Shown one piece after another: positions 44,570-54,990 of a DNA stretch of 64,000 bases (the stretch's first letter is position 1; each line of letters begins with the position of its first letter). The DNA is taken from sequence record MH494197.1; one strand, 5' to 3'. A program made the translations under genes and the position numbers. Under the pieces are notes generated by a model. The model was given only the letters and a program-made list of their open reading frames with translations, was not told the DNA's origin and searched no databases. Origin of the DNA: Escherichia phage CMSTMSU.

Positions 44570-45387
44570 TTACATATTTTCTTCAGCAAATTCTGCCAGT
44601 GGTGAACGAACAACACCTTCTAGTTCGATTACACGACAACCGTCCCAGTTCTTGAACTTCTCGGTAACATAAGTTAGACCGCTGTTTACTGGACTAATGA
44701 ACTTAGAGTCAATCTGACTCAAGTTACCCATAATAACCACTTTACAGTTCATTCCTGCACGAGTCAAGATTGTTTTGCCTGAGCAGGTGTGATGTTCTGG
44801 AATTCATCAACTACTAGGATAGTATTTGTGAAAGAACGACCACGAACGAAGTTTAGTGCTTTGAACTGGATAACATTGCGTTTCATGATTTCTTCGATAC
44901 TGCCTTGTGGGTTAGCATCATCTTTGTGTAGGAATTCCAACGCATCAATTGCTGCACCACAGAAAGGAATCACTTTCTCTGCTTCAGATCCGGTAAGAAA
45001 CCAATGTCTTCGAATTGGGAATCTTGTGTTTTGGAGAAGATGATACGGTCGTATTTTTCTTCTCTAGTACTAGCTCAGTGCAGTTGCAATAGTGATTAGT
45101 GTTTTACCAGTACCTGCTGAACCTAACAGTACTGTTAGATGAACATCAGGATCTAAAATACTGTTGATTGCTAGTGCTTGCTGAATATTCTTAGCCTTGA
45201 TATCCCACACTTTAGCACGTAAAGCAACTGATTGTCCAACGTCTTGGAATACAAGAATATCTTCTGGTGTTAAAGTACCATCATCTTCTTCAATTGCAGA
45301 TTGACCTTCGTACACAAATAGAACATCAGCATTATCATATAGGTAATCACCGATGCAAATATTTTGTGGCATGATATGTTCAATCAA
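44570..45387 (-). CDS. phoH: PhoH-like ATPase (frameshifted into 3 fragments)
   Basis: Walker A GSAGTGKT in 45070..45387; Walker B VVDEFQN in 44764..44973; C-terminal fragment 44570..44767. Confidence 0.8.
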
Positions 45388-46010
45388 GCTTTTGGAATGT
45401 AGTGGTACAAACGACGACCAACTTGTTCAGACTGAATAGATACATCAGTCAGATTACTATACACATCCCAGAAATGTAGATCAAGGTGATGTTGACCAAT
45501 GTGAATCAAATCACTATCACCAATCACGATATCATGACGGTAATCTTGAACTTCCACCCCGTAGCTTAGAGCCTTGATACGCATATTGATATCACGGGTA
45601 ACCAGTACTGAATCAGTTGCTAATGCTACTAAAATGATTTTATCATCTGGTACTGTGCTTTTTAGAAGAGTTTGAACTTTCTCTTCGTTACCAGCAGTAC
45701 GAATTAGTGCTTCCGCTTCTTCGCTTGTAATAACAAACAATTTGCTTTCAGGACTCATATTAGTATGAACATCAGCAATATTAACACCAGTACTACTAAT
45801 TTCTTCATGTGATGCATCAGAAAGGATAGCTTCAATGTTACGGATTGCAACACGAGCATCACGGGAAACATCCACATTACGACTTTTGATTGAATCCAAT
45901 TCTTCAAGTACTGTGAACGGTAGAATGATAGCTGCTCCATCAAAAGCAATGGTAGCATTTGGATCAGATAGTAGTACGTTTGTGTCAATTGTATATTTTT
46001 CATAAAACAT
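45384..46010 (-). CDS. PIN-domain protein immediately upstream of PhoH ATPase (YlaK-like arrangement)
   Basis: N-terminal IDTNVLLSDP...ILPFTVLEELD typical of PIN; ORF boundaries overlap by 4 nt. Confidence 0.6.
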   Translation of the reverse strand: MFYEKYTIDTNVLLSDPNATIAFDGAAIILPFTVLEELDSIKSRNVDVSRDARVAIRNIEAILSDASHEEISSTGVNIADVHTNMSPESKLFVITSEEAEALIRTAGNEEKVQTLLKSTVPDDKIILVALATDSVLVTRDINMRIKALSYGVEVQDYRHDIVIGDSDLIHIGQHHLDLHFWDVYSNLTDVSIQSEQVGRRLYHYIPKA

Positions 46011-46833: not shown

Positions 46834-47238
46834 TTACACCAGCCACCTCTGCACTAGCATGTTTGCCATATGCATAATTATCACGAAGTTTTTAAGTTCA
46901 GCATAAGTCATTTCATAACTATAGCTATGTGAGTGACCCTCTGGAAACAATTCAAGTGATTTTAATGGAGACAGGCGACTTTTGTCAATGATATAGTTCA
47001 TTTCTTCTTGAACTTCACGCTGTAACGCATCTTCTAATGACTTATCAGTACTTTCAACTGTTCCACCACATGCACCCAACAATCCATCCCAACGCACTTG
47101 TAGGAGTACTAAGTTAACCACTGGGATATCATTTAGTTCATAACCAGCGTATGGGGTACATTCTTTTGCATAAAAGAAACAGAATACAAAATTTGCACGT
47201 TTCCCCATTTGCCCCAGTGGTACTTCCGCTTTACTCAT
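46834..47238 (-). CDS. Nudix hydrolase
   Basis: Nudix box GACGGTVESTDKSLEDALQREVQEEM. Confidence 0.65.
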   Translation of the reverse strand: MSKAEVPLGQMGKRANFVFCFFYAKECTPYAGYELNDIPVVNLVLLQVRWDGLLGACGGTVESTDKSLEDALQREVQEEMNYIIDKSRLSPLKSLELFPEGHSHSYSYEMTYAELKNFVIIMHMANMLVQRWLV

Positions 47239-47307
47239 CGCATTCGTTCCTTAATTATAGTTTCAACCTGTGGAATTGCTTTCGTCGCAGGTTTGATGAC
47301 CTTCTCA

Positions 47308-47900
47308 TTAAAAGAAAATCATTATCATTTTTCGGATGTTAACATTTACACTATAGCATGGAAGTGCACCAGCTAGTCTGGACCATACCAGTACTGTATC
47401 ACTACTTCCAATAACTACAACTGTATCATTTTCTGTGAGACTTTTCAACACTTCATTTCGTTCTTCATAAATGGGGAGACGTACCCCATCAACGTAGCGA
47501 TGATACTCACCAATCATCACTACATTTGGTTTTGCAAAAACATCAGCTTTAGGAATATATGGTTCATAACCACAATTAATGACATTGTAATCATCAGTAT
47601 TAATAGAAAAGTTCTCAATTACTTCACATAAATTGCCGTGTAGTTTGAGTTCGGTTCCACCAATTCTAGTATATAGATCATCCATATTAGAAGTCATGTG
47701 TAAAAACAATCACCATACAAATCTTCTAATGATTTAATAAAGTAATGCATTTCATTAGGATGACATTCACCTAATTTTACACGCAATGTATTATAAAATG
47801 AATGAACTACATGATACTTAGAACTAAGTCGTGCAATGTTACAAACATCATTAATTTTGAAATTGTCCCACAACCCATCATCAAAGCGGAATGGTTCCAT
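47308..47900 (-). CDS. hypothetical protein (two fragments)
   Basis: ORFs 47694..47900 and 47308..47709. Confidence 0.25.
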
Positions 47901-48214
47901 CCCGCTCTCAACTGAAAGACCTGCCCTGAAATTATAAGTAATCTTTTGTTCCCAGCATTTTGTATAAATTTATCTGATATCACATTTACTCCTTATATAA
48001 AAAGTATCAAGTTTAATACTAAAAATACAATGATAGCAATATGATAGACATACATCCACTTATTGTGTCCATGTTTATTACCATTCCTGAATTCTCGGTA
48101 TAAACATTTAGTGTGATTGTATAACACCACACAAATAAACACAACTATGAAACAAAAATCCACTCGTAAATTATGTATGCCATCAGATACACTCTCTCTT
48201 TATAATTATTATTC

Positions 48215-48804
48215 TCAGTATTTCAAAATATCAAACTCTGGACTAACACTTGTTACATTATCACTAACAATTTTGAAAATAGACTCAACACGTTCATGTA
48301 ACTGAACATTGGTTTCTTCTTGAACTTCAATATACGCTGACATGGATGCAATTGCATGATAAGTCCCACTTCCGACAGCAGTAATTTGTGTTTTAGGTTG
48401 CAGTACTGAAAAGTCTTCTTGAACTTCATAAATCGTATGATTATGAAGAATAATGAACTGACCACCACCAACATCTTGTGATGCATCACGAGCACCCATT
48501 CATCTTTAAACATTTGACGAATGATAGGAATAACTTTCAGTACTAGATACTGTGAAAAGGTTTCCTGCAACTTGTTCTGGTAGAGTTAGGTTGTAATTCA
48601 ACAACTGTCCCATGCGGAACGAGGTAGTATACCCAACGCCATTACTTCTTTAGTGCGAGAAAGACCATCCTCATTGAGTTTAATGAACTCTTTCTCAAAC
48701 ACTTTAGGCTCAGTTTGAACTGCTTTAGTGAAACCATTGCTTCCTAATTTATCACCAGCGATGAAGGAAGATGTGCCATTTGTGTGAGCGATAATACAAG
48801 TCAT
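48215..48804 (-). CDS. HslV/proteasome-like Ntn peptidase (tentative, frameshifted)
   Basis: N-terminal MTCIIAHTNGTSSFIAGDKLGS and later ITAVGSGTYHAIAS resemble HslV T...G..IAGD and GSG motifs. Confidence 0.4.
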
Positions 48805-49150
48805 GAAATAACTCCTTGTGCAAAAGTGCCGTATACAACCAGTATATCAGCAACCCTAGTGTAAGTAAACATGCTCCATAAGAAATTGATAGAACATAGT
48901 AAATTCCTGCTTCGAACTTGGATGCAAATTTGTGTGTACTGGAATCCATAAAACCACGTTTGTAGTCTTTATAGATGAAACATGTTAAAACTAATGTAAT
49001 GCAATATACTATAGTTGTTGCATAAAAACAAGAGATGTTAAGTTTTGTAAATTTGTCATAGTTTATACACTCTAGTGTATGTGAACTTATAACAAAGGAT
49101 GTACCACTTTATCATCCTCTTATTATAATATTATTATTTTGTATCTAATA

Positions 49151-49522
49151 CTAATGAATGATACTACCTAATTCGAGCAACTGATCTGGTGTAAGTCTCA
49201 CAACTTCATTACCACGAACCTTACTAACCTCCACTAACAATTCTGGAGGAATACCATTCGCTGCATATAACGCAAATAGAACACCAACCTTAGTTGATAG
49301 CTGTTCAGCAAAAATAGTCATTTGGCGAACTGATATGTATGTGTCATCACTATTTCGTGCTTTACTTTCGATTGACACATTATGTAGACCTAGAATTGAG
49401 TCCTTCATCATGTATCTGTTTTCTATATTAGCACTAAAGAATGCGATAGTGCAAGAAGAATTACAATATCTTTCAACAATAATTGTTAAATTGTTATCAT
49501 TGACAAAATTTCCTAGTGCCAC
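49151..49522 (-). CDS. hypothetical protein
   Basis: 123 aa ORF. Confidence 0.3.
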   Translation of the reverse strand: MALGNFVNDNNLTIIVERYCNSSCTIAFFSANIENRYMMKDSILGLHNVSIESKARNSDDTYISVRQMTIFAEQLSTKVGVLFALYAANGIPPELLVEVSKVRGNEVVRLTPDQLLELGSIIH

Positions 49523-50034
49523 TCCGCATCAAAATCACCACCGTGACGTAATGATGATAGTGTCAAATGGGTGTGTTTCTCTAAAACCATCAAACGGTTT
49601 ACAGTATTTTCAGTTAAAGTTGAAATGAACTGAACTGTCTGTTTAGATTCATCATATCTAATGATACTTTTCTTTCAACACCTGCACTTGCAGGAAAGTT
49701 AATTAAGAAAATAATAATAATAGATTGGATGATTTCTTTACATAATCGTACCACTGGTTAACCCTCTTAGTTGATTGTTGATTACATAAATAATATTATA
49801 GGAAGATTTAACTTAAGTCAAATTGTTTTTATATCACTTCACAAATTCCCTCACAGAATCACCCGCCTTTTTACCTTCTTTTGAATGATTATATCACACT
49901 AATGTATAATGTCTATGCTTTTGTCAACAAATAACGTGGTAGTACTGAACTCGTTGTTGGTTCTAAGAGTTTTCCTGAAATTCAAACAAGTTGTGTACTA
50001 ACAAAGAAAAAGGAGCCTTATGGCTCTTTTTATT

Positions 50035-50295
50035 CTACGTATTAAGTTTCTGACAAATCATGTCAGCTTCAACACGGTCTTTATAATAAATGGTAAAACC
50101 AAATTTACCAGTTACTTTATACTCTTTACAAGTTAAACAATTTACAATGTAGTACTTGTTGTTTTGTGCTGAAAATCGTACTTCATGATTACGCATCACT
50201 GGTGGAGTAGTATTATCATTTAATACCATCATCACTAAGAGTACAAGAATCACAACTGCAAATGGAATACCTAAAATCAAGAAAGTCAAAGTCAC
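50035..50295 (-). CDS. small membrane protein
   Basis: Hydrophobic N-terminus LILGIPFAVVILVLLVMMV. Confidence 0.3.
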   Translation of the reverse strand: MTLTFLILGIPFAVVILVLLVMMVLNDNTTPPVMRNHEVRFSAQNNKYYIVNCLTCKEYKVTGKFGFTIYYKDRVEADMICQKLNT

Positions 50296-50317
50296 AACCC
50301 CTTATCATAAATGCAAT

Positions 50318-50767
50318 TTACAATAATCCCAGCATCTTCCAGTACTTTAATAGCTTCTGGTGGAGTGCGAGGATAACTTTGTGATAAATCACGCGAGCAA
50401 TACCACTTCCCGCGATCAACTTAGAACAAGTATAGCATGGTTGCAGCGTTGTGTAAAGTGTTGCTCCCTGACGTTCGGTAGGTGAACTGTATAACAATGC
50501 ATTCATTTCAGCATGGATTTCATGGATATTACTCCATTCATGGTGTTCATGCTTTGCGTCATCGCTAACCCAGTCTTGGAAACGTCCACCATTAACTAAG
50601 TGCTCATTAGCGTCACAGCAGTTAGGTTGTTTAGATGGAGTGCCATTATAACCAGTACTCAATACTCGGTTATTTTTAACAATAACACAACCAACTTTCT
50701 GTGAAATGCATTTACTCTCTTCAGCCACGACTTCGGCTATCTTCAACCACGTCAAGTGTTTCATCAT
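50318..50767 (-). CDS. cd: deoxycytidylate (dCMP) deaminase
   Basis: VLSTGYNGTP, HAEMNAL and PCYTCSKLI zinc-binding motifs. Confidence 0.85.
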   Translation of the reverse strand: MMKHLTWLKIAEVVAEESKCISQKVGCVIVKNNRVLSTGYNGTPSKQPNCCDANEHLVNGGRFQDWVSDDAKHEHHEWSNIHEIHAEMNALLYSSPTERQGATLYTTLQPCYTCSKLIAGSGIARVIYHKVILALHQKLLKYWKMLGLL

Positions 50768-51246
50768 ATACTCCTAGGGATTGTAATTTGGTTTTACAGT
50801 TCGAATGTATTTTAAGAACACGAAGGTAGTTTAGCACATCTGATTCTTCAATGTCAAATGGTTTCGCTGCATAAACGTCCCATGCTCCCATTAATTCTGT
50901 ACAGAACTTGATATCACCCGAACCCAGCAACTTGTCACGGAATTGTTTAAACTCGATTTCTTCATCGGATAATGAAAACCCAAATCCATAAAGCACATAC
51001 CACCAGCACTGAAGCATGACCCAGATGATGTACCAATTAAAATATCATCCATCCCATATAAGCCGTAAAAATATTGGAGTACCAAGTACTAAGTTTACTT
51101 CGGTGATGATATTTAAGAACATTCTTCTTGATATTTACATCTAATGAATTAGCTGTTGATATCACTTTTTGGTTAAAATAATAGTTTTGTTCAAATTACT
51201 CAACCATACTTTAGTATCAGTTGGGCTAAGAGCAGTGTATTTCATA

Positions 51247-51612
51247 TTAATCCTCTAAATTCCATTCATCAACCATAGTTGAGCATAATTCCATGTGTCG
51301 GAAATATTTCTCATTAAGTGAATATGGACTCTTATAAAATTGTCTTACATCAGTGAATATATCATAGTTTCTATATATAAATGACATATTTTTATTCATG
51401 AATTCTATAATCTTCCATAACTTTTCTGTATCGTTTTGTATAGTTTCTGCACTCAATCCCGTCAATTTCATTAGACGCTTGATTTTAAAGCCAGACTCTA
51501 TTGACGTATTGTTATGCTTGGTTAAGTAACTATAGCCAATGGAACTATATATTAGTTCAATACTATCAGTACTGGTTATTGTTCCTAGAAATGATTTTAA
51601 ATTTCTATTCAA
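51247..51612 (-). CDS. hypothetical protein
   Basis: 121 aa ORF. Confidence 0.3.
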   Translation of the reverse strand: MNRNLKSFLGTITSTDSIELIYSSIGYSYLTKHNNTSIESGFKIKRLMKLTGLSAETIQNDTEKLWKIIEFMNKNMSFIYRNYDIFTDVRQFYKSPYSLNEKYFRHMELCSTMVDEWNLED

Positions 51613-51881
51613 CCAATACCATTTTTGTTCTTGTTATAGCAAGAATACCACTTTTAACTATAGCTATTGCCTCTGAATTTAAACTTTCGGCAAATTCATC
51701 AATTAAAACATGTGATTGTAAAATAAATCACTTTGATCTTCAGATAATTTATATTGCTGCATATCCACCTACCCTATTAACAATTACACCTTGGGTATTT
51801 ACCTTGTATGGATCAATTTTTGATCAATAATTTTTGATATACAGCAAATAAAATGGGAATCATTAAAGATTCCCTAAGTAA

Positions 51882-52330
51882 TTATTTCTGGAATGGAGTG
51901 TACTGGTACTGCTCACAATCAGATACAGTTAGTACACCTTCATCATAACCGTACTGGAGAATAAGATCAAATGCTTTATCAACCATAGCTACAACGTCTT
52001 TGTAACGAACGATGGTGTGTGCCTGTTTCTCAACTGCTTTCATAATACCCATCAGCATCCAGCGGCCTTCATCAGTGTGAAGTTTAGCAAAACGAGGACG
52101 TTTAGTTGCTGCCATAATGTCAGTCCATTCTGCTTTAAACACTGATGGACGTTTAGGAATATCATACAGAGTTGTTGGGAATGTTACGTTGTTTTTCTTC
52201 ATAGCTTCAGCTTGTGCAGCACGATAACCTTGACGGAATAGTGGGTGCTGTGATTTTAGCTGTTCATTGTTAAAAACTACTTTGTTTTAAACGCGTCATA
52301 ACCTTCTTTGTATTGTGCATTAGACATATT
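51882..52330 (-). CDS. hypothetical protein (frameshifted near N-terminus)
   Basis: ORF 51882..52202 plus upstream frame. Confidence 0.25.
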
Positions 52331-52635
52331 ATTCTTTCCCTCGTCAGTACTGATGAATTTTTTATCTGAGAATGTGCCGTGTTCTTGACGCATAGCTTCT
52401 GCGTGTTGAACTGCGTTAATTGGATTAATGTTCTTTTAATAAGAACTTCTTGCATTAATTCGAGAACAATAGAAAAACCATTGAGTACTCGTTCTGCCTC
52501 GTCAACACCTTTCAATTCAATAGCCACTGCACTAATCTGATCTAATGCGGTATTAATAAACTCTGAATCATCTAACACATCATTGACTTCAGTATTATTA
52601 CGTACAAGAACTTTCATATAATCTCCAGAAATAAG

Positions 52636-52662
52636 ATGCCCCAAATGAGGCATCAAATGAAA
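52636..52662 (-). terminator. hairpin terminator downstream of clpP
   Basis: gatgcc ccaaatga ggcatc inverted repeat. Confidence 0.4.
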
Positions 52663-52668
52663 TTCAAA

Positions 52669-53363
52669 TTAGACCCACTCTTCCACGCCACCGCGACGTT
52701 TGACGAGATACTTACCTTCTTCGTTGCGTGGACCAAGGATGATACCATCAATGAAACCATGTTCACCGTATTCGAGTGCTTCTTCAGCGTTCAACCACAA
52801 GTCACGGTCTGCATCTTTCAGTAGTTGTTCGTGCGATACACCAACTGCTTCAGCAATTTCTTTCGTCAATAGTGTGTTCAATGCGTCAGAGTGTTTCAAA
52901 GAAATCTTCTGATCGGTAATCAGACCCTGAGTACCGGAACTCACTTGGTGACACATGAAGTAAGAACGCTTACCACCTAGACGGAAACCTTTAGTTCCAA
53001 CTACTGATTGTGTATAGCAACCCATTGATGCTGCATAACCCATTACTACTGTACGGATAGGAGATACACAAGACTTAGCAATGTCAGCGATACCCAAACC
53101 TGCGTGTACTGAACCACCGGAGAACTAATGTAGAAGGTAATTGGTTCAGAACCCTGAGAATCCAACCACACCAATTGTTGCTTGATGATATGTGCCATTT
53201 GGTCATTGAAGTCAGTATCAAGGAAAATGATACGGTCTTGCATCATACGAGATGCTAGGTCATAAGTACGTTCTGCACCATTAACTTTTTCAACTACATA
53301 AGGAATAGAAATGTTGCGAACTTCACCACCAGCATAACCACCAAAATTGAATTGTTCAACCAT
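52669..53363 (-). CDS. clpP: ClpP-family serine protease (one frameshift)
   Basis: RIIFLDTDFNDQMAHIIKQQL, GYAASMGCYT (Ser), MCHQ (His), DADRDLWLNAEEALEYG; fragments 53046..53363 and 52669..53097. Confidence 0.85.
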
Positions 53364-53803
53364 TGTTATTTTCCTCTATTGTTTCATTGTTGTGAGTATT
53401 ATATCACAGTGTTCGTATTTGTCTACAAGTTTCTTAAAAATCTAGTAAACCGCAAATTGTATGTTTATTAAACATATCGTGGTCAATCTTTAACAACTTA
53501 ACCATAGCATTATCATACACCGTAGAGTCGGTAATGTCAAACAAAGAATTTGTGTAATAACGTTCATTTTCTACATAAATGTATAAATCATTTGATTTGT
53601 CAAGATCTTCATAGAAGTTAGCATCAAAGTACTCTGCATTTCCATCAATCCAAACCTCAACTGAATCATCATCTAAGCAGTAGTTTCTTGCTTCTTTGAA
53701 TATATTTCCAGCTTTCTGGCTGCACTGGAGTAATGTTTATAACCATTAATCACGTACTTGATTTCATCATTGTACTCAATTATATATACAACAACATTTT
53801 CCA

Positions 53804-54199
53804 TCAGTACACTCCTATTGACGCAAGAGCATGAAGAAATTCATATCGTATACCAACTGGGATGTCATCAAAATCAATCTCAATCATTCTTAGTGAATTT
53901 GAAAATTGTTCGTATTTAAAGAACATATTAATTGATAAAGTACTGAATGGTAACACACCACCACGTCTATCATCATTAATTAGAACATACACCTTTCCCA
54001 CAAATGAATCTAAATCGTCTGCTTGTTTTACATCACTGGTGAAGTGATGCCTATCTTTCATCACAGTACCAGTACCATCAGGATTGTAGTATTGGGTTTT
54101 GTCACAAGAGTATAGCATACGCATACCCAATCGTCGAAACATATGACAACTACCCAATATAACAAGCATTTTATCATCAATGTGAAGTGTATGTATCAT
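53804..54199 (-). CDS. hypothetical protein
   Basis: 131 aa ORF. Confidence 0.3.
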   Translation of the reverse strand: MIHTLHIDDKMLVILGSCHMFRRLGMRMLYSCDKTQYYNPDGTGTVMKDRHHFTSDVKQADDLDSFVGKVYVLINDDRRGGVLPFSTLSINMFFKYEQFSNSLRMIEIDFDDIPVGIRYEFLHALASIGVY

Positions 54200-54208
54200 A
54201 ACATTACC

Positions 54209-54990
54209 TTAGATTTCAAATACAAATTTAGGATCGTAATCGAAGTTCTCACATGCACCACTGTAAGATTCATAACCTCTTGGATTACAAATGATACGAG
54301 TTTTCCCAATGTTGTAGTCAAAGCTACTATGAACGTGACCATGAATCCAAACATCAGCACCCAAATCTTCGATGTACTGGTCCATATCAGAACAATAACA
54401 TCCATTCAGTGAGTCATTCTTGTATCTCGGAGATACACTCTGATAACTTGGTGCATGATGTGTTACCACCACAACCTTGAAATCATTATCATTCATTAGA
54501 CGAACTGTGTTAACTGAATTTTTGATAAATTGTTTATCCTGATGATGCATGAACTCAACATCATCAGGTTTGAGCTTACGTTTCCACGGTTCTGATGTTG
54601 TTCCATGACGAATGTGTTTATAATCATTCATCTTTTGTTGAGCATCAAACTTAACCAGTGCGTTGCCTTTATCAAAGTCAGTCCACAGTGTACTACCAAC
54701 CAGCAGTACACCATCCAGCCATACAAATTTGTTTTGTAAAAGATGAAATTTGGAATCTCATCTTGCATATCGGACAGTACTTTATTAGTCTTGTGAATGT
54801 TTGAACCGTAGTACTCATGATTACGGAACCAGTACTACATTCTTGAACTGCTTGCACAGGGATTCGATGCCAGTACGATAACGACTACGTTTAACTTCAT
54901 CAAAATCCCCAGCAATAATCAGTACTGTATCACTGTAATCACCACTATGGAGGTAATCAGTGCCACCGTGTACGTCTGACGTTACAACAA
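54209..54990 (-). CDS. calcineurin-like metallophosphoesterase (frameshifted)
   Basis: C-terminal fragment has VVVTHHAP and GADVWIHGHVHSS; N-terminal part by hand translation has DVHGG-type motif. Confidence 0.65.

Follow-up and report, generated by a model that had tools for sequence, protein, structure and literature searches.

A stretch of 64,000 nucleotides (nt) from Escherichia phage CMSTMSU (record MH494197.1), hereafter referred to as the window, encodes on its minus strand two proteases of different self-compartmentalising types, namely an S14 ClpP-family serine peptidase (clpP, 52669-53363) and an HslV/proteasome-beta-like N-terminal nucleophile (Ntn) peptidase (48215-48804). The account favoured here, to which a probability of roughly 60% is assigned, is that this phage lineage possesses a ClpAPS-like machine that is separate from head maturation, together with a self-assembling HslV-like peptidase of the Thr1 type. 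The phage ClpP would assemble into the usual barrel and would be fed by a phage ClpA-type double-ring unfoldase equipped with an IGM docking loop, while a phage adaptor with a ClpS domain would probably modulate the choice of substrates. This machine would be transcribed by the host σ70 RNA polymerase, outside the late morphogenesis programme, and would degrade cytoplasmic host or phage proteins in an ATP-dependent manner, before and independently of capsid maturation. The HslV-like protein would assemble by itself into a Thr1 peptidase that either needs no partner, as seems to be the case for BPH and Anbu, or uses HslU borrowed from the host, since no phage HslU is annotated in the relative vB_Ec-M-J (1-358 kb inspected, the remainder being the second copy of a 21.5-kb terminal repeat). 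An initial annotation of the window, made from the sequence, had proposed that the ClpP is not the prohead protease and may act on host or phage regulatory proteins. This interpretation is supported by the present analysis, and the underlying observation is partly confirmed: the two genes occupy the coordinates given above, which are exactly the gene boundaries in vB_Ec-M-J, and neither of them is an intact open reading frame (ORF) as sequenced.

The reason for these interruptions lies in the record. The closest record to positions 47500-54500 is vB_Ec-M-J (OQ718158.1, 98.7% identity by megablast), one of the Asteriusvirus jumbo coliphages of the PBECO4/121Q type, and the whole window is collinear with its positions 70,994-135,547 in reverse orientation. 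The CMSTMSU record (MH494197, 386,442 bp) carries the NCBI flag UNVERIFIED_ORG, and its genome announcement describes MinION FLO-MIN106 reads, base calling with Albacore 2.1.3 and assembly with Canu, without a polishing step (PMC6256653). Relative to vB_Ec-M-J, 327 indel events are present in 63.3 kb of the window, a density of about one per 193 bp that extends across its entire length, and in 315 of them it is the window that lacks nucleotides. Homopolymers hold 215 of the 327 events. Of the 70 six-base runs, 61 have lost at least one base, as have most runs of 6 or more bases, and every one of the 29 CCWGG (Dcm) sites of vB_Ec-M-J is corrupted in the window. Most genes of the window are frameshifted, including those for PhoH, DNA ligase and a metallophosphoesterase. 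Within clpP, a single 1-nt deletion at 53118/53119, where CCAGG reads CCGG, splits the gene into ORFs of 105 and 142 amino acids (aa), whereas the repaired gene encodes 231 aa. The HslV-like gene is divided into ORFs of 68 and 94 aa by deletions at 48495, 48564 (2 nt) and 48632, and encodes 197 aa once these four missing nucleotides are restored. The gap-filled products of these two genes, and of a third protease gene that lies between them, are identical to those of vB_Ec-M-J, with 0 amino-acid substitutions.

The frameshifts in the protease genes are sequencing and assembly artefacts, because the error signature runs through the whole window, the repaired proteins are free of substitutions and the record is an unpolished MinION/Albacore/Canu product. 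The window is a raw nanopore draft, and therefore the actual phage almost certainly carries all three protease genes in unbroken form. The opposite view, that clpP and the HslV-like gene are real pseudogenes inactivated by frameshifts in CMSTMSU, can point to the interruption of both ORFs in the given sequence. It deserves next to no credence, as the indels fit the sequencing-error pattern described above (CCWGG sites, six-base runs and nearly every gene affected), the repaired proteins lack substitutions and the record is an unpolished draft that stands as UNVERIFIED at NCBI; it was the error signature, together with the way the record had been sequenced, that led to the rejection of real pseudogenisation. 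Any finding in this window that hinges on the integrity of an ORF is suspect, and claims of intact, split or pseudogenised genes need to be checked against polished relatives.

The repaired ClpP matches the Pfam family CLP_protease (PF00574) with an E-value of 1.3e-41 and 142.9 bits against a cut-off of 20.2, over profile positions 2-179 of 182, and the unrepaired fragments of the window reach 75.6 and 37.1 bits separately. Solved bacterial ClpPs in the PDB are matched at about 3e-36, in an alignment that begins at the N-terminal axial-loop region, and the protein is 38% identical to ClpP from E. coli K-12. The catalytic Ser, His and Asp, which lie in the segments GYAASMG, MCHQV and DRDLW, occupy columns that are invariant with Ser111, His136 and Asp185 of the E. 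coli precursor (Ser97, His122 and Asp171 of the mature protein), and they also align with those of the solved ClpPs. The triad had been called intact in the initial annotation, which is right for the three residues, unaffected by the draft errors, but not for the gene that carries them. The overall layout comprises a propeptide-like N-terminal extension, an axial-loop segment (IPYVVEK) and a C-terminal extension of about 20 aa. Classification with hidden Markov models, which had been suggested as a check, returned S14 ClpP, with the cellular ClpP models scoring above the head-maturation model: the NCBIfam models TIGR00493 and NF001368 give 153.3 bits (cut-off 308.6) and 156.4 bits (cut-off 249), respectively, while NF045542, which describes ClpP-related head-maturation proteases, gives 51.1 bits (cut-off 120). 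Because no equivalog cut-off is reached, including those for cellular ClpP, the protein is best described as a divergent member of the ClpP family and not as an equivalog of bacterial ClpP. No match to the PADLOC defence models was obtained.

The best PHROG match of the phage ClpP, in a collection without curated thresholds, is phrog_94, 'head maturation protease' (9.5e-44), and several relatives annotate the protein under the same name. The label is probably wrong in these records, and it stems from a shared fold and chemistry, given that the ClpP-related head-maturation proteases of phages (NF045542, PHROG 94) have in common with the phage ClpP a ClpP/crotonase-type fold and serine-protease chemistry. 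Unlike those enzymes, which are encoded between portal and capsid genes, the phage ClpP scores below the NF045542 cut-off, is encoded outside the head module, keeps a cellular-type N-terminal region and belongs to a genome with another prohead protease. In vB_Ec-M-J, clpP is located at 81,671-82,366 and the head block at 200,458-206,511, about 118 kb apart. This block contains the genes for the portal (Portal_T4, 2.7e-112), a Peptidase_S77 protein, a probable scaffold and a Gp23-type major capsid protein (9.5e-90). The S77 protein is EcMJ_335, which has 206 aa, belongs to the T4 gp21 prohead protease family (Pfam PF03420, 8e-21) and is encoded between the portal and capsid genes. Enzymes of the T4 gp21 type (MEROPS S77) are unrelated to ClpP and HslV in fold and sequence, and here the gene lies outside the window. 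It is this type that fills the prohead-protease slot in the lineage, and the virion proteome of phAPEC6 contains a gp21-like "prohead core scaffold and protease" (gp227c) beside the scaffold, capsid and portal proteins (PMC7247149). The paper on phAPEC6 reports 62 virion proteins, and 'Clp' does not occur as a word in its text (PMC7247149).

The clpP product is not the prohead protease, because this role is filled by the gp21-type S77 protease of a head module located 118 kb away; what the initial annotation had regarded as probable thus proved correct. Its statement that no capsid or portal gene lies nearby was also borne out, since tblastn searches with the portal, capsid, scaffold, prohead-protease and terminase proteins of vB_Ec-M-J found no match in the window. 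Clustering of clpP with head-assembly genes in a complete genome had been named as the finding that would speak against the proposal, and in vB_Ec-M-J the gene stands at 81.7 kb while the head block spans 200.5-206.5 kb. Neck and tail genes occur at the far end of the window, about 40 kb from clpP.

The initial annotation had also called for a search for partner ATPases, and vB_Ec-M-J was found to encode a ClpA homologue and a ClpS-like adaptor, both of them observed in relatives and not in the window itself. The ClpA-like protein, EcMJ_316 (762 aa), contains AAA, AAA_lid_9, AAA_2 and ClpB_D2-small domains and aligns with E. coli ClpA in a single stretch (597 bits, residues 17-741 against 20-734), while ClpB and ClpC give lower scores and two-stretch alignments. 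Its best NCBIfam model is TIGR02639 ClpA (751.6 bits, full-length, below the equivalog cut-off of 993), and the ClpB model reaches 637.5 bits in two stretches. It has the architecture of ClpA, with an N-domain and two AAA+ modules without the ClpB-type middle domain, and an IGL-type docking loop for ClpP, which reads SIGM where E. coli ClpA has SIGL. The gene (168,677-170,965 in vB_Ec-M-J) forms an opposite-strand island in the tail/baseplate structural block, with a virion structural protein gene and a 9,972-bp structural gene as neighbours.

The candidate adaptor, EcMJ_400 (181 aa), retrieves only ClpS chains from the PDB as a single sequence, with non-significant E-values of 0.4-0.7, and has no Pfam hit. 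A family profile built from 14 homologues matches residues 25-104 of E. coli ClpS at 3.5e-11, covering the whole ClpS core (Pfam PF02617 family), and because of this match EcMJ_400 is taken to combine a ClpS domain with an additional N-terminal domain, about 70 residues long. At the positions that we take to form the ClpS pocket (NDD and His66 in E. coli), the profile alignment places DDP and Asn, which may indicate an altered N-degron specificity.

Homologues of all three components of the E. coli ClpAPS system (the S14 peptidase ClpP, the unfoldase ClpA and the N-degron adaptor ClpS) are therefore encoded in this phage lineage. As in E. coli, the ClpP has an aligned triad, a propeptide-like N-terminus and an axial-loop segment, the ClpA is full-length and the ClpS core is present. 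Several traits set the phage proteins apart, besides the low identity of ClpP to its E. coli counterpart and its failure to reach the equivalog cut-off: the additional C-terminal tail of ClpP, the IGM loop of ClpA in place of IGL, and the extra domain of the ClpS-like protein with its substitutions at the presumed pocket positions. The three genes do not form an operon and are scattered through the genome. Among sequenced phages, ClpP is accompanied throughout the Rak2-like clade by the ClpA homologue, and the two keep step in their divergence, with identities for ClpP and ClpA of 70 and 75% in RaK2, 67 and 61% in Serratia BF, 46 and 47% in Vibrio 2.275.O, and 40 and 39% in Atu_ph07, and the 71 records that contain the ClpS-like protein all belong to it as well. 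Agrobacterium phage Atu_ph07, whose ClpP and ClpA are orthologous at about 40% identity, is reported to carry seven Clp-family genes, including ClpX and ClpB (PMC6102473); the Asteriusvirus set consists instead of ClpP, a second ClpP-fold protein, ClpA and the ClpS-like protein, plus the HslV-like peptidase. Neither HslU nor ClpX nor Lon is annotated in the inspected part of vB_Ec-M-J. EcMJ_295, a 442-aa AAA ATPase, was considered as a partner of the HslU/ClpX type and discarded, as it shows only weak generic AAA matches, without PDB or NCBIfam support.

Eight positions of ClpP, which we take to line the IGF/IGL docking pocket, were read from the alignment with the E. coli protein. The phage ClpP has Y60T, Y62Y, F82S, I90V, M92M, F112L, L114G and L189I at these sites. 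Taken together with the IGM loop of the phage ClpA, these changes could reflect a co-adapted interface, and they are equally a ground to doubt docking.

Regarding expression, a promoter-like site of the σ70 type with an extended -10 element (53398-53425, minus strand) precedes the clpP ATG by 35 nt. It follows the pattern TAGACA-N16-TATAAT, contains the 11-mer TGTGATATAAT and agrees with the consensus at 11 of 12 positions, with the TG in place. The full pattern occurs twice in the window against 0.00 occurrences expected by chance, the second site (49888-49915, minus strand) preceding the third protease gene by 134 nt. The 11-mer alone is found in the window at 8713, 49888 and 53398, always on the minus strand. 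In 300 kb of vB_Ec-M-J it appears nine times (44737, 57728, 81626, 85155, 126740, 139079, 168628, 263091 and 291402), on the coding strand every time and each time ahead of a gene or tRNA, and genes for ClpP, the second ClpP-fold protein, the ClpA-like protein and an AAA ATPase are among those preceded by it. It stands at -43 of clpP and at -47 of the ClpA-like gene in vB_Ec-M-J, the latter copy being paired with a perfect TTGACA. Judged by these consensus matches, TGTGATATAAT looks like the mark of a strong host-type promoter class of this phage. The scaffold and capsid genes of vB_Ec-M-J are preceded by the T4-type late motif TATAAATA, at -55 and -52, and the promoter motifs would fit expression of clpP and clpA by the host RNA polymerase, outside the late morphogenesis class. 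Downstream of clpP, 15 nt after the stop codon, an intrinsic-terminator-like hairpin of 8 pairs is followed by a T-run (52635-52654, minus strand), again a consensus match, so that clpP looks like a self-contained transcription unit.

The HslV-like protein required more sensitive methods for its classification. Against Pfam, including Proteasome (PF00227), no match was obtained at E ≤ 0.1, and the HslV equivalog models align only with residues 119-180, at 18.9 bits against a cut-off of 137 (NF003964) and 18.1 against 157.75 (TIGR03692). Failure of the HslV-like motifs in a profile search had been named as a result that would undermine the assignment. The outcome was divided: the Pfam and HslV equivalog cut-offs were failed, but the family-profile search, the structure prediction and the fold search were passed. 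The protein matches PHROG 1040, 'peptidase HslV family', at 2.6e-22, and when the profile of its own family is compared with the PDB, the 13 best matches are HslV (down to 7.6e-8), followed by 20S beta subunits and BPH. In the profile alignment, the family motifs MT-, AGD, KV and GSG fall on the corresponding motifs of E. coli HslV. The AlphaFold2 model has a pLDDT of 92.2 and a pTM of 0.88. With this model, Foldseek retrieves HslV at 1.8e-10 (TM 0.61-0.65, 17-20% identity), BPH with TM values of 0.73-0.75 at 13-14% identity, and 20S beta subunits at about 1e-7.

The sequence of the protein starts with Met-Thr-Cys, and Thr would become the N-terminal nucleophile after removal of Met. Across an alignment of 34 homologues, with identities down to 25%, residues M1, T2, C3, D18, K34, G146 and G148 are invariant, and T2, D18 and K34 correspond to Thr1, Asp17 and Lys33 in the numbering based on the nucleophile. 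The protein thus shares with HslV (ClpQ), BPH and the 20S beta subunits (MEROPS T1), whose first two members differ in ring symmetry, the predicted alpha-beta-beta-alpha Ntn fold, a presumed Thr1 exposed by removal of Met, Asp17, Lys33 and the G-S-G motif. It departs from them in its identity of only 13-20%, in the failed Pfam Proteasome and HslV equivalog thresholds, in the lack of an annotated HslU gene, in forming a phage family of its own (PHROG 1040, about 196 phage genomes, mostly T5-like) and in an insertion of about 20 residues in the Asteriusvirus copies. On these combined sequence and structural grounds, it is classed as a Thr1 Ntn peptidase of the HslV/BPH/20S-beta superfamily, outside HslV proper.

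The family was detected by tblastn in 196 phage records, most of them from T5-like Epseptimavirus and others from Aeromonas and Vibrio phages, among others, and it is not peculiar to jumbo phages. Its members also occur in phages that infect such different hosts as Geobacillus, Moorella and Gordonia, and BFVD likewise contains numerous uncharacterised proteins of phages that have an HslV-like fold. In the window, as in metagenomic contigs, the HslV-like gene has genes for dCMP deaminase and PhoH as neighbours. In EPS7 (L016, 4594-5579) it lies beside genes for ribonucleotide reductase, dihydrofolate reductase and thymidylate synthase, and in Aeromonas phage 2L372X (L017, 4001-4963) PhoH is encoded near two tandem HslV-like copies. 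A nucleotide-metabolism setting for this family therefore recurs in unrelated phage groups. None of the six other phage contexts examined has an ATPase gene adjacent to the HslV-like gene. In two of the loci, L011 (5020-6564) and L013 (5103-6555), the HslV-like gene directly follows a ClpP-fold gene, the match of this neighbour being 4e-4 by BLASTP for L013 and not significant for L011. As a general rule the pairing was rejected, as it is seen in L011/L012 and L013 and is absent in L014, L015, EPS7 and Aeromonas phage 2L372X.

Other explanations of these genes differ in how they distribute the same evidence. The phage ClpP, and perhaps also the second ClpP-fold protein, could be an accessory morphogenetic protease that assists the gp21-like enzyme in processing virion proteins, whether of the head, the inner body or other parts. 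The phrog_94 match, the annotation of several relatives and the detection of a ClpP homologue in CBB virions by mass spectrometry, through one peptide, all lean this way. This role is nonetheless improbable when set against the 51 bits (cut-off 120) of the head-maturation model beside the 153-156 bits of the cellular ClpP models, the 118 kb that separate clpP from a head module already provided with an S77 protease, the silence on 'Clp' of the phAPEC6 paper with its 62 virion proteins, the σ70-type promoter motif of clpP in place of the late motif of the scaffold and capsid genes, and the presence of a dedicated ClpA and ClpS. In another scenario, the phage ClpP would rely for the most part on unfoldases of the host (its ClpX or ClpA) or would enter mixed rings with the host ClpP, re-programming or swamping host proteolysis, and the phage ClpA would be a separate chaperone or translocase for the very large virion. 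A virion-assembly or translocase role has been suggested for phage ClpA and ClpX by Iyer et al. (PMC7824862), the position of the ClpA-like gene on the opposite strand within the tail/baseplate block would agree with it, and the N-terminal axial-loop segment of the phage ClpP is well conserved with cellular ClpPs. What makes such an arrangement unlikely is that the phage ClpA keeps a docking loop (SIGM) and is matched less well, and in two stretches, by ClpB. ClpB is not known to carry a ClpP-docking loop and does not dock to ClpP. Moreover, the genes for ClpP, ClpA and the ClpS-like protein are co-inherited with parallel divergence across the clade, clpP and clpA share a strong promoter motif, and the residues taken to form the pocket differ from those of the host ClpP, which argues against an efficient use of host IGF/IGL loops.

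With respect to the HslV-like peptidase, activation by the host HslU has to be weighed, in which case a hybrid HslUV would degrade selected proteins of the host or the phage. HslU is present in the E. coli host, HslV is the best match both by sequence and by Foldseek E-value, and no phage ATPase is adjacent in the contexts examined. Such a hybrid is nevertheless rather doubtful, considering that identity to HslV is only 17-20%, that the TM values are higher for BPH, which is not known to have an ATPase partner, that the family is spread over phages of Geobacillus, Moorella and Gordonia, and that the Asteriusvirus copies carry the insertion of about 20 residues.

Several points weigh against the favoured account of a ClpAPS-like machine and a self-assembling Thr1 peptidase. 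The HslV-like protein falls under every curated HslV and proteasome threshold. Three of the eight ClpP positions that we take to line the pocket are non-conservatively changed (Y60T, F82S and L114G), so that docking of ClpA is not assured. The ClpA-like and ClpS-like genes are known from relatives only, and the location of the ClpA-like gene, on the opposite strand within the tail/baseplate block, would fit a role as an assembly chaperone independent of ClpP. The promoter class is deduced from consensus matches, and the 8-kb region as a whole holds no excess of promoter-like sites (38 observed, with 36.9 expected from shuffles). Finally, the virion proteome of the more distant phage CBB detected a ClpP homologue (PMC5259590), although with one peptide and 4.5% coverage this is weak evidence for an association of ClpP with the virion.

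A more far-reaching version of the favoured account can be put forward tentatively. Rak2-like jumbo phages may carry a self-contained ClpAPS machine that is insulated from the host and serves, early in infection, to destroy particular proteins of the host, for instance those of defence or stress responses, and the Thr1 peptidase family shared with T5-like phages and encoded among nucleotide-metabolism genes may be an ATPase-independent relative of the proteasome with a conserved part in host takeover. The presumed remodelling of the ClpP pocket with the IGM loop, the possibly altered pocket and the extra domain of the ClpS-like protein, and the strong σ70 promoter motifs at clpP and clpA would all fit this proposal.

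The gene set is already known from annotation and comparative genomics. Attai et al. (2018) described ClpP, ClpA, ClpS and others in Atu_ph07, noted the conservation of ClpA in most Rak2-like phages and speculated on virion assembly or on the turnover of host or phage proteins (PMC6102473). Iyer et al. (2021) reported ClpP in jumbo phages of groups 1 and 2.2 with a patchy distribution, considered the peptidase to be probably host-directed and also mentioned phage ClpA, ClpX and ClpS (PMC7824862). Non-morphogenetic roles for these genes have accordingly been proposed before (PMC7824862, PMC6102473), and for another jumbo phage the occurrence of HslV genes unaccompanied by HslU has been pointed out (PMC7823757). 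Annotations of all four genes, under mixed labels, already exist in GenBank for relatives. The literature search yielded genome descriptions and a single comparative review but no experimental study of phage ClpP, HslV-like peptidases or the other proteins considered here. The conserved set of ClpP, ClpA and ClpS-like proteins is a candidate for targeted proteolysis during infection, as is the orphan HslV-like family of about 200 phage genomes, and the substrates of both systems could reveal how very large phages remodel the proteome of their host or evade its defences.

The third protease gene (49151-49754, minus strand) lies between the other two and had been overlooked by the initial annotation, whose two protease types are both present. 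It encodes a divergent ClpP-fold protein of 202 aa, with five nucleotides missing in the window (49524, two at 49543, 49583 and 49668). The protein scores barely above the Pfam CLP_protease cut-off (20.6 against 20.2 bits) and matches PHROG 26024 at 3.7e-70; its SPGG motif, Ser101 and His126 all fall in columns that do not vary in an alignment with true ClpP. All its orthologues share an N-terminus with a basic segment, a hydrophobic stretch and a PASA/G boundary, IIIIFLINFPASA standing before this boundary and G after it. These features read as a Sec signal peptide, and the product is possibly exported. In the search for homologues, the gene was found only in Asteriusvirus-type sequences, where it diverges fast (52% identity between subgroups against 96% for ClpP). 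Its AlphaFold2 model, derived from only 9 sequences, is poor (pLDDT 51.7).

Immediately upstream of the HslV-like gene, a small ORF of 86 aa with two hydrophobic stretches (48801-49059, minus strand; EcMJ_209 in vB_Ec-M-J) is frameshifted in the window. Because its stop codon overlaps the start of the HslV-like gene (ATGA), the two are probably translationally coupled. The putative membrane character of its product is read from the sequence alone. The HslV-like gene of EPS7 is also preceded by a gene for a small membrane protein, and no homology was found between the small membrane ORFs of Asteriusvirus and EPS7. Directly downstream of the HslV-like gene, at about 46834-47900 on the minus strand, lie genes for a Sir2 protein (NAD-dependent deacetylase-like) and a NUDIX hydrolase, both frameshifted, which suggest a role in NAD metabolism or counter-defence. 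The PhoH-like gene (44570-46010, minus strand) encodes 479 aa in relatives and is broken into four ORF fragments in the window; inspected by eye, the N-terminal part of its product resembles a PIN domain, so that the protein would be a candidate PIN-PhoH fusion. Elsewhere in vB_Ec-M-J, the region of the ClpS-like gene (252,243-253,925) includes flanking genes for an IF3 homologue (IF3_N, 3.3e-16; IF3_C, 2.2e-12) and a KTSC-domain protein. In the same genome, 14 paralogous genes with the annotation 'regulator of chromosome condensation' (RCC1-like) follow one another in a tandem array at 333,206-350,767, and homologues of these genes are present in multiple copies in 121Q and PBECO4 according to the paper on CBB (PMC5259590).

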